IMG/VR virus record: IMGVR_UViG_3300033571_009591 | Location: 20,216-84,215 of that record | Direction: 5' to 3' (one strand) | DNA length: 64,000 bases | Source: a virus | In this document: positions 3,388-31,494 of the stretch, piece after piece | Numbering within the stretch: position 1 is the stretch's first letter | Layout of the letters: every line of letters starts with the position of its first letter | Program-made: the position numbers and the translations under genes | Notes under the pieces: model-generated | What the model was told of the DNA's origin: nothing | What the model saw: the letters and a program-made list of their open reading frames with translations, nothing else | Database searches by the model: none

Positions 3388-3980
3388 ATGTTGACCTGTA
3401 ACTGGTGCGGTGACGAGATGAAGGCAGGCGTGTACGAGATACACAGATGCCTACAAGACGGTGAAGCCGAAACGGCTAGCGCTGAGTAAGTAAAAGATTC
3501 GTACACCAATTCCATTGTGGGTTACTGGTAGACGAAGTACGGCAAGACGGCGTGTCCATAACGGGCACGCTTTTTTGTTGCCCGAAAACTGAAGTCGCCC
3601 TATAACCTGGAACGGGCAAGCGAAGTTGTTTGTAGTTATGCAGTGATCGGATGCATTTAGCAAAAAGTAAAAAACGGCCTGGATACCTGGATGCTGTCGA
3701 ACAACGTTGAGTTGTTTGTAGTTGTGAAACGGATCTTAGCTGGACTGAACGAAACGGCAAGGTTGAGTGGCCTCGACTCAACTTGACTGACGGCATGCCT
3801 TAGTGCTAGTATGTACCCATGAACAAGAAAGACGCACTCAACGGACTCCTTCGCATGAAGGGACGCTTTGTGCTGAACCAAAGTCCGAAGGTCTTTGCGG
3901 ACAAGAGGACAAAGCGAAACCGCACGCGCTCTGACAAGAAGCGCCGTGCCCTAGATGAACAGGAATAGGAAAAAGTAAAA

Positions 3981-10517: not shown

Positions 10518-10655
10518 TTCGGTTTGGGTGGTCGGTAGATTGCTCAAAGACTTTCAGTTCGGGTGCGTCCTTCCAACGCTTTCCCACCAGAACCGAACGG
10601 AGAGTAAAGTGGGCAGAGTCCCTTAACCCCCTTTCGGGACTCTGCTCACACTTTA
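10518..10655 (+). ncRNA. structured 3' element / candidate sRNA with anti-SD loop
   Basis: TTCGGTT..GGTGG/CCACC..AACCGAA stem, then GCAGAGTCCC-TTAACCCCCTTTC-GGGACTCTGC hairpin. Confidence 0.45.
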
Positions 10656-17376: not shown

Positions 17377-17606
17377 TGGACGAGATTCTTTTAAGTCGAA
17401 CAGTTATGTTCGTAGGTGACTACTTTACTTTGATGACGACAGTTGTCCTTGACGAGAAGTTGCGGAACGACGATGAAGGTGACAACGATTTCGCAGTTAG
17501 AGTTGCCTCAGTTTTTATGAATGAATACTACGGATTTGATGTAGAGGCAGTATCTAATAACATTGGAGTTGTTGATGATGATGGAGAGGTAGTTGAAGAT
17601 GAGTAA
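17376..17606 (+). CDS. hypothetical acidic protein
   Basis: TAATG coupling. Confidence 0.6.
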   Translation: MDEILLSRTVMFVGDYFTLMTTVVLDEKLRNDDEGDNDFAVRVASVFMNEYYGFDVEAVSNNIGVVDDDGEVVEDE

Positions 17607-17949
17607 TCTCACACTTGACATGCTTTCTAATTTAGTTGATGACATTACAAATGGAAGTTTAGATGGTCAGTTGGATTCGATTAGTAAAGCAGTAGAGCAG
17701 AGAAAGAAAGACATTCGTAGTGGAACGACCATTGACGATTTTAGAGTTGGAGATGTTGTGACCATTAACGAGCGTTGCGGAACTAAGTACCTTATTGGAG
17801 AACGAGGCACAGTTGTCGGGATTCGTAGGACTAAGATAACAATTCAGTTTGAGAACCCGAAGGGTAGGTTCGTGCGGAAGAACGCAGATGGAACTACCTA
17901 TTCTTCAGATGTTGTAGTGCCAGTAGAAATTGTTGATAGAAAAAAGTAA
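17593..17949 (+). CDS. SH3/KOW-like hypothetical protein
   Basis: FRVGDVV...GERGTVVGIRRTKITIQF. Confidence 0.6.
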   Translation: MKMSNLTLDMLSNLVDDITNGSLDGQLDSISKAVEQRKKDIRSGTTIDDFRVGDVVTINERCGTKYLIGERGTVVGIRRTKITIQFENPKGRFVRKNADGTTYSSDVVVPVEIVDRKK

Positions 17950-17976
17950 AAGAGAAGGAAATGCGGTAAAGTATTA

Positions 17977-18083
17977 TCACCTCGGCAAATAGGCAACCCC
18001 TTCGCCTCCGCCGAGATGAGAGTGGGCTCACCCTTCCACTCCGCCAACTTCTCTCTTTAACCCCTTTTAGATGAGAAGTTGGT
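17977..18083 (+). ncRNA. candidate three-hairpin sRNA with C-rich anti-SD loops
   Basis: loops AACCCCTTC (17995-18003), GCTCACCCTT (18026-35), TTAACCCCTTTT (18057-68) on three consecutive stems. Confidence 0.6.
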
Positions 18084-18203
18084 GTAGTAGGGTGCTTGAC
18101 TTTCTATAAGAAGTTTGATAAAATACAAACAAGCCTCGCATGAAAATGCGGGGCTTTGTTTTTTCCCTAATCACTAGTATGAAATGACGATACGATTTTA
18201 TAC

Positions 18204-18449
18204 ATGAAGATTGTTGATAAGGATTACCACCCAAATGGCTCAGCCAATCCTTTTGTTGTTGCTATCGTAGATAGTCCTGAAGAAGGGGACACGAAACTAG
18301 TAATAATGTTTGAGGATTATGATTATGTTGCGGTATTATCACTTGACTATCTTGTTCGTGATGAAGACATCTCTGTAAAATTCAATGGACATCACGGGGA
18401 CAAGTACGAAAAACTTCGTAACGATCTCTGGGATGACTTTGCTGGATAG
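18204..18449 (+). CDS. hypothetical protein
   Basis: ORF track; TAG stop inside motif A. Confidence 0.6.
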   Translation: MKIVDKDYHPNGSANPFVVAIVDSPEEGDTKLVIMFEDYDYVAVLSLDYLVRDEDISVKFNGHHGDKYEKLRNDLWDDFAG

Positions 18450-18479: not shown

Positions 18480-19049
18480 ATGACAACTGTTGCAGCGGTG
18501 CAGGGTGAAGGCTGGGTTGTTGTTGGTTACGACTCTAGAGTCACGGAAAACCAAGAGAAGATATTTACTTTGGCTAAAGACAATGGCAAAGTAGTTAAGA
18601 ATGGAAATTACTTACTAGGCGCGGCCGGCGACATGAGAGCCATCAACTTACTCAGTTATGTCTTTAAGCCACCTGTTATTAATCCAACAACTTATGGCGT
18701 CAGGTTGGATAAGTTTATGACTGCAGTTTTTATTCCTGAACTCAAGAAATGTTTTGAGGAAGCCTCATACTCCAAAGATGGGGAGATGGAGTCCCAAGTG
18801 ATGGTTGTGGTCAATGGGACTATTTACGAGATAGGAAATGACTTTTCGTGGGCACATGATGAGTCAGGTATCTACTCAATAGGTTCGGGTGGCGACTACG
18901 CCATCAGCGCGTTGCTTGCCACATTCGAAACACGCAAGAGAACTATTGGAACTGCGAAGGCACTTGTGCGTCAAGCAATAACTATTGCCTCGAAGTTAGA
19001 CCCAAACACTGCACCGCCCATCTACATACAAGTACAGCACTTCGGTTAA
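18480..19049 (+). CDS. HslV/proteasome beta-type Ntn-hydrolase
   Basis: N-terminal (M)TTVAA nucleophile, DSRVT, K, GAAGD, SIGSGG.YA. Confidence 0.85.
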   Translation: MTTVAAVQGEGWVVVGYDSRVTENQEKIFTLAKDNGKVVKNGNYLLGAAGDMRAINLLSYVFKPPVINPTTYGVRLDKFMTAVFIPELKKCFEEASYSKDGEMESQVMVVVNGTIYEIGNDFSWAHDESGIYSIGSGGDYAISALLATFETRKRTIGTAKALVRQAITIASKLDPNTAPPIYIQVQHFG

Positions 19050-19169
19050 ATTTTTACTTTTTGCTGTTTAGCTCTGCAGCCGGCGTTCACTGGAAGCCAA
19101 CTACAAACAACTTCGTGATGTCTGCTACAAGGACTTGACATGTCACCTTCGTTAATATATACTTATGCT

Positions 19170-19257
19170 ATTCAGTAAGGGGGAAGTCGCTGGTCACCTG
19201 AACGACCTGAAACCTAGGGGGTCGGAAACAATACGACTCCCTTACTGAATCTTTTTT
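19170..19257 (+). ncRNA. candidate promoter-driven small RNA
   Basis: TTGACA-17-TATACT (19135-19163); predicted +1 at the start of 12-bp stem ATTCAGTAAGGG/CCCTTACTGAAT; T-run follows; no ORF. Confidence 0.6.
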
Positions 19258-19324
19258 GACATTACGAAATTGATGTACTAGAGTAACTAACACAAGGACA
19301 CAAAGACAAAGGGAGAAAAGATAT

Positions 19325-20209
19325 ATGAAAAGACTAATACTAATAGTCGCACTTGTAGCGTCATCGCTAACACCTGCGCATGCTCAACCAACTCAAACTA
19401 TTGCGGTGATTGACTCAGGAGTCAATACTGCGTTATTTAATAATATTGTTACAGAGGTATGTATTCTTGAATACTCCAACTGCGCTAATGGAAAGCCTTT
19501 CATGGAAGGTAAGGGTGCGGCTCATACAGGAGTGACAACTAATGCTGCGCTTAATCATGCGACTGGAATGATATCTATTATCAACAAAGTGAACCCTTCA
19601 GTAAATATTATTCCAATTCGTATTATTGGAATTACTGATAAAGGTAACCCATTTATTTACTCAAACAATGCGGTGAAGTTAGCACTCGACTGGGTTGTTG
19701 CTAACCACGCTAAATACAATATTACTGCGGTATCCGTATCGCAGGGTAAAGTTTTTGCTGGATGTAGAGTCCCTGATGGAACTGCCAATGCGGTAGCAAC
19801 ACTAAAGGCTAACAATGTTGCCGTAATTGGTGCGACAGGTAATGCTAGTAATCGAAAAGAGATGGACTCGATTGCCTGCCTACCTGATGTAATCTCGGTA
19901 GGGGCAACAGACAACCCTGATAAGGGAACTAGCGGAATTGCTTACGACCCTAAGGCAAAGCCATATATTGCTCGATACAGTAATGGTAATGCTCAGACAA
20001 GTTTTTACTTGAACGCTAGATGGTATGTACTTCAGAGTAATGGAACTCAGAAGTTTACAGTCGGAACTTCCAACTCAACTGCCTCACTCGCTGGACTATG
20101 GACGCTGAATAGGAAGTCAAGCGTTGCGGAAACGCAAGCAACTCTCAACTCTTTAGCAACAACTGCGAGTAACGAGTGGCTAACAGGAAAGTATCTTCAG
20201 ATTCCATAA
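19325..20209 (+). CDS. secreted subtilisin-like (S8) serine protease
   Basis: signal peptide ending AHA; IAVIDSG (Asp), NHATGM (His), ATGN oxyanion, GTSNS (Ser). Confidence 0.85.
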   Translation: MKRLILIVALVASSLTPAHAQPTQTIAVIDSGVNTALFNNIVTEVCILEYSNCANGKPFMEGKGAAHTGVTTNAALNHATGMISIINKVNPSVNIIPIRIIGITDKGNPFIYSNNAVKLALDWVVANHAKYNITAVSVSQGKVFAGCRVPDGTANAVATLKANNVAVIGATGNASNRKEMDSIACLPDVISVGATDNPDKGTSGIAYDPKAKPYIARYSNGNAQTSFYLNARWYVLQSNGTQKFTVGTSNSTASLAGLWTLNRKSSVAETQATLNSLATTASNEWLTGKYLQIP

Positions 20210-23888: not shown

Positions 23889-24184
23889 ATGAACAACCTT
23901 AGTATAGTTTGGACAGCCGTGGTAGCCGTTGTAGCAGGTCTAGCGTCAATTCTAGCCTCTATCGCTGGTAACGACTCGTTGTCTATAAGTTTCGGTCTGT
24001 GTGCGGTTGCTTCGTCAATGCTCGCAAGCCGAGAACGCTAAGCCGTTCCTTAGCACCGAAAGACTCACTAACAACCTTCCCCGTTGGTGAGTCTTTCTTT
24101 TGGTGTGTCACTTGCTTTAATTTTTTAATACTGTTAGTATTTGCCTTATCAGGGGAACAGCCCCTAAATATCGAAAGGTAAAAA

Positions 24185-29730: not shown

Positions 29731-31494
29731 GTGAGCGTATTTAAGCGCAGCGAACCAAACAATGACTCTACCCCCGTCTCCGTGCCAAAAAAGAAATCTG
29801 CTCCTAAGAAAAAAAATCAGTCGAAGCAGACAACTCGTTCTCGCACACAATCTAGAATTCCTCAGGCTGCTCCGATAATTAGTGGAGCCGCATCTGTATT
29901 TTTATCTCAGTCAAATCAAGCTCAAGCAGTTCCATATAACCAACCTCGCTCTCTTACAGCAGCGGCGGTACAGGTAAAATTAAATGACAAAGGTGAATCA
30001 GAGCAATTTAGAAATCGCCGCTCTGCTGCTTCAAGCGCGTGGCAAGCAGAAGCATGGGAATACTACGACGCAATTGGTGAAATCAAGTACGCATTCAATC
30101 TTGTTGCATCAGTTGTATCACGAATCAGAATTTTTCCAGCAGTAATTGATGATCCTTCTCAGGCTCCAACATCAGTACGTTCTTCAACAACTTTAGATAA
30201 ACAACTATCTGCTGCAGCAGAGCGAGCACTTGCTCGTCTTGATTCTGCATACGGTGGACAAGCTGGACTCCTCCGAGATGCTGCACTCAACCTCTCAGTG
30301 GCTGGCGAATGTTATCTAGTGCAGATGCCAGAGCGTAAGGGCTCAGGTATTCCAGAGTCTTGGGATATTCGTTCTGTAGATGAAGTAGTTATAGATGCTC
30401 GTGGCGGATACAACGTAGTAAGTCGCCGTGAGCAGACAACTGGTGGCGGAAATACAGGACCAGCAACTCATTTAGGTAACAGCGCATTTGTTGGTCGCAT
30501 CTGGCGCTCACATCCACGCTTTTCTGATGAATCAGATTCTTCAATACGCGGTCTTTTAGACCTTTGCGCAGAGCTACTTCTTCTTAACAGAACATTCCGT
30601 GCGACTGCTCGCTCTCGCTTAAATGCTGGCGCACTTTATCTTCCAGATGGTTTATCAGTTGCTGCACAAGGCGACCCAGATTATCCGTATGAAGATGGAG
30701 ATGGTCAAACAGATCCTGGTTTCACAGCAGAAGAAGCAGAAGATGAGTTTGAAGATCAACTCATTGATGCGATGACAACTCCGATTCGTGATGAAGAGTC
30801 TGCATCCGCTGTTGTTCCACTTATTATTCGCGGACCTGCTGAACTTGGCGACAAGATTAAGCAGTTTAAGTTCGAACGTTCATTTGACCCAGCACTTGCA
30901 CAACGCGCAGACCGTGTTCTAGAACGCATCCTTCAGGGACTAGATGTTCCTAAGGATGTTGTTACAGGTCTTGCTAACGTTAAGTATTCAAACGCTTTAC
31001 AGATTGACGAAGGACTTTACAAAGCGCACATTGAGCCTTTGATGCTTCTTATTGTTGATGCTCTAACAATTGTTTACTTGCGTCCATACTTAATTGCTCA
31101 AGGCTATTCACCTGCAGATGTTGACCGCATTGTTGTTTGGTATGACCCATCAGCAGTTGCTACTCGCAATGACCGCGCAACTGATGCTGATGCTGGCTTT
31201 GATCGTGGCGCCGTTTCATACGAGACATGGCGTCGCGCTCATGGTTTCTCAAACGCAGATGCTCCTACATCAAACGAAATCGCAATTCGTATGTTGTTCG
31301 AGAAGGGTGCAATCACCCCAGAACTTACAGAATCAATGCTTGCAACTGTTGCCCCAGAGATGATGGAAGCAGTTCGCAATGCTCAGCAAGCAGCATCTGT
31401 TGCTCCGCTTCCACCAGGGCTTGAAGATATTCTCAAGGGAGCTACAGCAACCCCTGAGGCACCAGCAGAGCCTGCTCCAGGAACAGAGCAATAA
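29731..31494 (+). CDS. portal protein
   Basis: WQAEAWEYYDAIGEIKY, NLSVAGECYL, RIWRSHP, actinophage portal pattern; first large head gene. Confidence 0.85.
   Translation: MSVFKRSEPNNDSTPVSVPKKKSAPKKKNQSKQTTRSRTQSRIPQAAPIISGAASVFLSQSNQAQAVPYNQPRSLTAAAVQVKLNDKGESEQFRNRRSAASSAWQAEAWEYYDAIGEIKYAFNLVASVVSRIRIFPAVIDDPSQAPTSVRSSTTLDKQLSAAAERALARLDSAYGGQAGLLRDAALNLSVAGECYLVQMPERKGSGIPESWDIRSVDEVVIDARGGYNVVSRREQTTGGGNTGPATHLGNSAFVGRIWRSHPRFSDESDSSIRGLLDLCAELLLLNRTFRATARSRLNAGALYLPDGLSVAAQGDPDYPYEDGDGQTDPGFTAEEAEDEFEDQLIDAMTTPIRDEESASAVVPLIIRGPAELGDKIKQFKFERSFDPALAQRADRVLERILQGLDVPKDVVTGLANVKYSNALQIDEGLYKAHIEPLMLLIVDALTIVYLRPYLIAQGYSPADVDRIVVWYDPSAVATRNDRATDADAGFDRGAVSYETWRRAHGFSNADAPTSNEIAIRMLFEKGAITPELTESMLATVAPEMMEAVRNAQQAASVAPLPPGLEDILKGATATPEAPAEPAPGTEQ

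Follow-up and report, generated by a model that had tools for sequence, protein, structure and literature searches.

Between two small genes of a phage genome lies a spacer in which three adjacent hairpins expose C-rich loops. The locus raises the question whether this spacer encodes an RNA and, if so, whether that RNA could act on the G-rich ribosome-binding sites (RBS) located in front of part of the phage's own genes.

The locus and its three hairpins

The window analyzed here, 64,000 nucleotides with a GC content of 42.5%, covers bases 20216-84215 of a virus record in IMG/VR (84 kb, 58% complete). The portal protein encoded in it shares 74% identity with its counterpart in Actinomycetia phage DSL-LC01, which comes from lake water, and 58-62% with the portal proteins of large Microbacterium phages; the source is an uncultured freshwater/lake actinobacterial phage. 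No match to the region was found among 50,697 phage records searched at the nucleotide level, and a tRNA/tmRNA scan found neither type of gene. Nearly all ORFs around the RNA are carried by the plus strand. The hairpins are located in a 254-nt spacer (17950-18203), for which the following features were found or predicted:

17593-17949: 118-aa ORF, upstream border of the spacer
17967-17972, plus strand: promoter-like -10 element of the small RNA (sRNA), TAAAGT; TAnnnT is conserved in homologues
17979-18088, plus strand: predicted small RNA of about 105-110 nt, ends placed by the -10 box (5') and by hairpin 3 (3')
17981-18015, plus strand: hairpin 1, outer stem CTCGGC/GCCGAG (17981-17986/18010-18015), inner stem 17991-17994/18004-18007
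18020-18041, plus strand: hairpin 2, stem 18020-18026/18035-18041, including GAGTGG/CCACTC (18020-18025/18036-18041)
18042-18084, plus strand: hairpin 3, core stem CCAACTTCTC/GAGAAGTTGG (18044-18053/18073-18082)
18096-18124, plus strand: strong sigma-70-type promoter of the next transcription unit, TTGACT-17-TAAAAT, 10 of 12 consensus matches, with TG
18131-18165, plus strand: intrinsic terminator directly 3' of that promoter, 11-bp stem and T-run
18204-18449: 81-aa ORF, downstream border of the spacer, followed by an HslV-like protease

The first-pass annotation of this DNA had described three stems with CCC(C)TT loops and had suggested folding and covariation as checks. Stems and loops are present in the sequence at 17981-18084, and the minimum free energy (MFE) fold of 17977-18083 consists of exactly these three hairpins (-44.4 kcal/mol). 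None of 200 dinucleotide shuffles was as stable (shuffle mean -23.1, sd 3.2; z = -6.56). The loop of hairpin 1 is AACCCCUUC (17995-18003) and that of hairpin 2 is CUCACCCU (18027-18034). Hairpin 3 is longer than described before: it adjoins hairpin 2 directly and reaches CGCC.../...GGUG (18042-18084), with CGCCAACUUCUC/GAGAAGUUGGUG as the full long stem and a loop that reads UUAACCCCUUUU and contains AACCCCUUUU at 18059-18068. A long-range fold of the whole spacer, in which loop 2 pairs with AGGGUG (18090-18094), was rejected because the partner is not conserved beyond the closest relatives of the window.

The surroundings of the RNA show several further features. In most lineages the TTGAC box of the next promoter, in the form TTGAC(A/T)-17-TAnnnT, is found 7-8 nt 3' of the RNA. 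A relative, L003 (2342-2680), has a small Cys-rich ORF at about 2398-2620 between the same promoter and terminator; in the window the promoter abuts the terminator because this ORF was lost, and the terminator at 18131-18165 is a remnant of the deleted small gene. The protease downstream is a stand-alone HslV/proteasome-beta-like protein (18480-19049; PHROG 1040, E 1e-23), and the ORF 3' of it (19325-20209) reads from its sequence as a secreted subtilisin-like protease, with no PHROG match. Between the two, at 19135-19262, a consensus promoter (TTGACA-17-TATACT) precedes an RNA of about 85 nt that ends in a T-run and contains no ORF. Nearly all related loci have this RNA, which is ultra-conserved: over 63 nt it shows 100% identity to L012/G001, a lineage in which the HslV protein shares only 60% identity. 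The 5' UAAGGGGGAAG and the 3' CGACUCCCUUA of the RNA pair with each other, and Rfam at E <= 1 holds nothing that matches it.

Conservation, strand and predicted ends of the RNA

Related loci were gathered by protein-anchored and pattern scans of IMG/VR and lake metagenomes. Nineteen distinct homologues were aligned by MAFFT with no structure information, and each of the 19 forms the same three hairpins when folded individually. From this alignment RNAalifold also obtained the three helices, with double changes in 12 of 19 pairs. In the sequence-only alignment 95.0% of cells are paired, compared to 38-45% when the 3' partners are slid, and the compensatory counts were reached by 0 of 500 shuffles. 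For distant members we used a covariance model, R1, which matches the window at 17977-18088 (95.6 bits, E 7.6e-20). It revealed further members, again in front of the 81-aa gene, in lineages that at first appeared to be without the RNA, all on the plus strand and with E values from 6e-6 to 4e-3. Weaker R1 matches with the same layout were found in L053, L054, L051 and L058, and one in G008. L004 and L015 reach only E 0.03-0.05 and were accepted from synteny and fold. Two weak matches, L023(-) and L039(-), were dropped since they do not fold like the family, and two pattern matches, L076 and L093, were dropped as high-GC chance matches.

The resulting 27 distinct homologues from IMG/VR and lake metagenome contigs have 98.5% of cells paired (37-45% in the slid controls) and compensatory changes in 16 of 20 pairs (128 cells), in an alignment that was fitted to the model and leans towards structure. 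The structure is thus kept in the homologues, and all three hairpins contribute: compensatory changes occur in 4/4 modelled pairs of hairpin 1, where 100% of cells are paired, in 5/6 pairs of hairpin 2 and in 7/10 pairs of hairpin 3.

The same alignment allowed the strand to be assigned. On the plus strand the modelled structure contains 36 G.U cells and 8 non-pairs, and the second pair of hairpin 3 is G.U in 18 of the 27 sequences and A-U in nine. Since the G.U cells would become C.A mismatches on the minus strand, the RNA is on the plus strand and a minus-strand RNA was ruled out; single-sequence fold energies do not separate the strands. The RNA contains neither a plus-strand ORF of at least 30 aa nor a conserved ORF. 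A small peptide from the 14-codon ATG frame at 18016 was excluded because this frame is broken by a 1-nt indel in L006. Taken together, these data give good support to the three-hairpin element being a conserved RNA gene and not a chance structure.

The gene appears to belong to a clade of uncultured freshwater actinobacterial phages. Three records that are 92-100% complete carry one copy per genome, and all genuine copies come from contigs with phage genes, either viral or metagenomic. The named or cultured relatives DSL-LC01, Pumpernickel, Big4, Mimi and Sixama gave no R1 match at E <= 0.01 (0/5). An exact-pattern scan of 185,579 species genomes (one per prokaryote species), which diverged copies would escape, returned only the chance match L093.

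All 28 copies examined have a TAnnnT box (27 identified by script and L013 by eye), 3-4 nt before the start of the model and 7-8 nt before hairpin 1. Positions 1, 2 and 6 are invariant and positions 3-5 vary (TAAAGT, TAAAAT, TAGAAT, TAAACT, TAGACT, TAGTAT, TAAGAT, TACACT). A TGn extension is found in 18 of the 28 copies, the window copy being without it, and no -35 box was found upstream. The flanks and even the upstream genes vary among lineages while the box stays. This pattern of variation is that of a -10 element, from which we infer a start near A17979. Hairpin 3 is probably the terminator of the sRNA; a U-run follows it in L015, L053, L054 and L051, and none does in the window.

A sequence of another kind, AAAAAGTAAAA, occurs in 28 exact copies at 115-28067 (0.26 expected), 23 of them on the plus strand. 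It usually lies within TAGCAAAAAGTAAAA(A) and often stands either directly 5' of ATG or some 20 nt upstream of an AAGGGG RBS; the copy at 17941-17951 is located just upstream of the sRNA -10 box. Its use as the -35 element of a phage promoter class was considered and rejected: among the 23 plus-strand copies TAnnnT lies at +15 only in the sRNA copy and at +12 at 3970.

Sequence from the locus is present in RNA libraries. Five RNA-type runs hold 5-15% (shares 0.05-0.15) of the sampled words of a 2.2-kb stretch. One of four metatranscriptomes (X2) yielded a 179-nt contig over 17993-18100, the missing contig cover in X3-X5 being uninformative. The X2 contig passes hairpin 3 and extends 71 nt further, into a promoter region resembling the one in the relative L084. 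Its depth of 11 is no higher than that of the neighbouring gene (15), and contigs of the upstream gene stop at 17921 (X2) and 17954 (X3). Such contigs cannot show transcript ends or strand. The X2 contig demonstrates presence in an RNA library together with read-through or DNA; it is not evidence of a discrete sRNA.

These data bear on two cis-acting explanations. The element could be the structured 3' end of the upstream operon mRNA, serving as a terminator, as a stabiliser or for pairing with the Shine-Dalgarno sequence of the same or neighbouring messages, as in icaR. The report on Staphylococcus aureus icaR describes a UCCCC motif 3' of the stop codon (UCCCCUG in the 3' UTR) that pairs with the mRNA's own Shine-Dalgarno sequence and blocks initiation (PMC3868564). 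In the window the RNA likewise sits immediately 3' of a stop codon and precedes the next promoter, similar loops sit on the operon-end hairpins at 10606-10650 (UUAACCCCCUUUC) and 24067-24103 (AACCUUCCCC), and a single stop-proximal hairpin of DSL-LC01 bears an anti-leader loop. A 3' UTR, however, would not account for a -10-like box at fixed spacing in 28 of 28 copies with differing upstream genes, nor for the small terminator-like hairpin found between the upstream gene and the -10 box in L074, L078 and L070; the gap in X2 contigs between upstream gene and RNA (17922-17992) also argues weakly against it. The promoter-like box lies between the upstream gene and the RNA, and that gene's own RBS is not GGGG-type. 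We consider this explanation rather unlikely. A leader transcribed from the -10 box, acting in cis as a put-like antiterminator on RNA polymerase or as a 5' stabiliser of the downstream message, would agree with the RNA-library contig spanning the RNA through the downstream promoter region and with the missing U-tract after hairpin 3 in the window. Such a leader would be redundant given the strong consensus promoter directly downstream in most lineages and explains neither the conservation of the loops nor their complementarity to RBS, which makes it very improbable.

Other C-rich operon-end structures are present in the window. A second structured intergenic RNA at 10518-10655 (-57.3 kcal/mol, z -4.65) starts with a -10-like CATAAT and contains a 14-bp hairpin with the loop UUAACCCCCUUUC; homologues with 77% identity were found in L075, L080, L087, L095 and L130, and this RNA could be another sRNA with a C-rich loop or else part of a 3' UTR. 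The hairpin at 24067-24103 is a terminator at an operon end, with the C-rich loop AACCUUCCCC.

Loops and ribosome-binding sites across phages

In 26 of the 27 homologues CCCY is found between the outer-stem arms of hairpin 1 (apical loop included); the loops of hairpins 2 and 3 contain it in 21 and 18 of the 27, respectively. The nearest sister lineages of the window have CCUGUCU in loop 3, which is not C-rich. Three C-rich loops, as first described, are therefore a property of the window phage and not a constant of the family. The hairpin 1 loops resemble the 3' tail of 16S rRNA, which we take to be CCUCCUUUCU.

The plus strand of the window contains 30 AAGGGG sites, which define one further feature:

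2534-22987, plus strand: candidate target block, 27 of the 30 AAGGGG sites, most of them 6-10 nt before a start codon

The assignment of ORFs before 29.5 kb as early is based on gene order alone. According to a crude ORF caller, whose start choice favoured G-rich upstream sequence, a GGGG-type Shine-Dalgarno sequence precedes 20 of the 65 ORFs before 29.5 kb (and one of mixed type) and none of the 18 late ORFs. The late ORFs mostly have GGAG/GAGG-type sites (13/18). The statement that nearly all early genes use AAAGGGG was therefore overstated, the share being about a third; the restriction of the GGGG motif to the presumed early block and the prevalence of GGAG-like sites before late genes were borne out.

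The loops had also been proposed to be complementary to this RBS class, and a perfect complement of at least 7 nt is indeed present in 19 of 65 early but 0 of 18 late upstream regions (Fisher p = 0.009). The whole record contains 49 sense-strand sites with a loop complement of at least 7 nt, 24 of which have an ATG 3-12 nt downstream. The complementarity in the window phage is short (7-9 nt) and concerns about 30% of the early ORFs, and any pyrimidine-rich loop is partly complementary to any Shine-Dalgarno sequence.

We compared ten phages, the window and nine further related records, matching the upstream sequences of each against its own loops. Early RBS and loop motifs were as follows:

Window, G004 and G005: early RBS AAAGGGG, loop CCCCUUU
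G001: early RBS GAAAGGGAA, loop UUCCCUUUC
G002: early RBS CUAGGGAG, loop CUCCCUAG
G006: early RBS CGAAGGGAGAA, loop UUCUCCCUUCG
G006-G008: early RBS (C)GAAGGGAGAA, loop UUCUCCCUUC(G)
G009: early RBS GAGAGG, loop CCUCUCU

Every sRNA was then compared with the translation initiation regions (TIR) of every phage in a 10 x 10 matrix, each cell giving the fraction of upstream regions with a complement of at least 7 nt. The diagonal sum of 2.43 was reached by none of 20000 permutations of the sRNA labels, a test that ignores relatedness; given the relatedness among the ten records, the independent loop/RBS shifts number only about 4-5. Related lineages share motifs, and for this reason only 2 of the 10 columns have the phage's own sRNA in first place. 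In the phages' own late genes complements of at least 7 nt occur in 0-6% of cases. The joint shift of loop and early-RBS motifs across ten related phages supports pairing between the two.

DSL-LC01, which has no R1 match, offers a comparable arrangement. It uses AAAGGACAA leaders (AAAGGA, AAGGAC and AGGACA each in 15-16 of 45), and within the 60 kb examined its plus strand contains GTCCTTT only once, in a 15-bp hairpin's loop. This hairpin (L150:10150-10262, record 30150-30262) is stop-proximal, its loop ...UUGUCCUUUA... mirrors the AAAGGACAA early leader, and it is followed by a TTGAGA/TATAAT promoter and a AAAGGACAA-type leader.

The joint changes also bear on two trans-acting explanations. 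The RNA could be a sponge or decoy whose CCCUU loops sequester an RNA-binding protein or nuclease specific for C-rich loops or for the 16S 3' tail, much as CsrB offers GGA loops to CsrA. Several hairpins with one repeated loop motif are the layout of a sponge, and hairpin 1 loops such as UCCCCCCUUUCU in L004 differ at few positions from the presumed 16S tail. A protein decoy, however, does not need lineage-specific loop changes that match RBS changes, and it comes without a candidate protein; we regard it as improbable. Alternatively, the same sRNA could target host mRNAs with G-rich ribosome-binding regions and stand in for a 6C-type RNA of the host, for example by halting replication or division of the host. 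A design with two or more C-rich loops is common to 6C and the phage RNA, and the loops of Mycobacterium tuberculosis 6C act on G-rich 5' UTRs including those of dnaB and panD, and overexpression arrests growth (PMC6486639). Host targeting does not predict that the loops track each phage's own RBS motif, the record has no Rfam 6C match at E <= 10, and the family pattern has no copy in the 185,579 species genomes apart from the high-GC chance match L093. Host targets are judged unlikely.

Relation to known RNAs and possible role

Sequence searches set the RNA apart from known families. An Rfam search had been suggested, and no family matched, 6C included. At gathering thresholds no family was matched by the three-hairpin RNA of the window (the 6C cut-off is 47 bits). 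At E <= 10 the region 17800-18300 gave chance-level hits only, with U12 having the lowest E value (0.0074) and trpB the top score (26 bits), far below the cut-offs. A search of the whole 84-kb record for 6C (RF01066) at E <= 10 was likewise negative; control genomes also stayed below the cut-off, so the sensitivity of this search is doubtful. A survey of full-text literature turned up no account of such a phage sRNA. The sRNA family is new and absent from Rfam, and the proposed mechanism is of a known kind. Since no Rfam model matches, the RNA is likened to 6C and RsaE in mechanism only.

To our knowledge, the phylum of these actinobacterial hosts lacks Hfq. The 6C loops of M. tuberculosis are described as binding the AGGGGGG RBS of panD with no chaperone (PMC6486639). 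6C/B11 (Rfam RF01066) is about 100 nt long, and the conserved C-rich loops of its hairpins pair with G-rich sites on mRNAs, RBS among them. Its two conserved C-rich loops (L2, L3) are a feature also present in the phage RNA, a resemblance of design and not of homology. Unlike 6C, which is a chromosomal gene across Actinobacteria, the new family is phage-encoded, without a host chromosome copy in the exact-pattern genome scan, and its candidate targets are the phage's own genes. It also differs from 6C in having three hairpins, the third terminator-like, and in its CCCCUU/UCCCU loops with a U-rich 3' side like the 16S tail.

A second likeness is that to the UCCC or C-rich-loop sRNAs of Firmicutes (RsaE/RoxS, LhrC, IsrR, SprX/SprY), in which unpaired C-rich loops are reported to mask Shine-Dalgarno regions. 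Some of these sRNAs are carried by prophages, as in the case of S. aureus SprX/SprY. They are unrelated in sequence (no Rfam match) and regulate host genes, whereas the motif of the phage RNA co-varies with a private RBS class in the early block of a lytic-type phage. The icaR case differs in that one mRNA acts on itself, while the phage RNA has its own promoter-like box and many candidate targets. Among phages, T4 RegB and RegA inactivate early messages as a class via their ribosome-binding sites, with RegB cutting GGAG; both are proteins. The c4 antisense RNA of phages P1 and P7 is a phage RNA that masks a phage RBS, unlike the present RNA in acting on one operon through long specific matches instead of a shared RBS dialect.

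Considering these likenesses, we propose that the element is the gene for a trans-acting anti-Shine-Dalgarno sRNA directed against the GGGG class of early messages, a proposal to which we give an even chance. The sRNA would be transcribed from its own -10 promoter (TAAAGT, 17967-17972), starting near 17979, and a transcript of about 105-110 nt would fold into the three hairpins, the long hairpin 3 probably ending it. The loops would expose C-rich sequences resembling the 16S tail (AACCCCUUC, CACCCU and AACCCCUUUU) and pair with the G-rich Shine-Dalgarno variant AAAGGGG(A) of about a third of the presumed early genes and of no late ones. Pairing in the cell would hide the RBS and lower the translation, perhaps also the stability, of the AAAGGGG(A) gene set. 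Late genes of the GGAG type would escape because of a C.A mismatch.

Shut-off of early translation by this sRNA is plausible but unproven. The location of the RNA inside the early block speaks against a shut-off timer, which would need accumulation of the RNA or a distinct promoter class. The missing U-tract after hairpin 3 in the window and a complement that covers only about 30% of the early ORFs also speak against the proposed sRNA.

A broader idea is put forward tentatively, and we lean against it at present: each lineage of lake actinophages might use a private translation channel, in which an early Shine-Dalgarno dialect of its own co-evolves with a mirror-image RNA. The dialects would possibly be AAAGGGG, CUAGGGAG, GAAAGGGAA, CGAAGGGAGAA, GAGAGG and AAAGGACAA, an assignment we hold with equal reserve. 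The mirror RNA, somewhat doubtfully, would be the three-hairpin sRNA or the operon-end hairpins. With the same hesitation, the whole early set might be switched off or metered at the RBS step and GGAG-type late and host messages spared, which would make the RNA a counterpart of T4 RegB.

The joint change of loop and RBS across lineages provides ready natural compensatory mutants. If the pairing is true, it would explain why a block of early genes avoids the canonical GGAGG, and a virus-encoded family would join the C-rich-loop sRNAs of Gram-positive bacteria. A single small RNA together with a private RBS dialect would then allow phages to time the translation of an entire gene class, a control principle that would be simple, portable and orthogonal.
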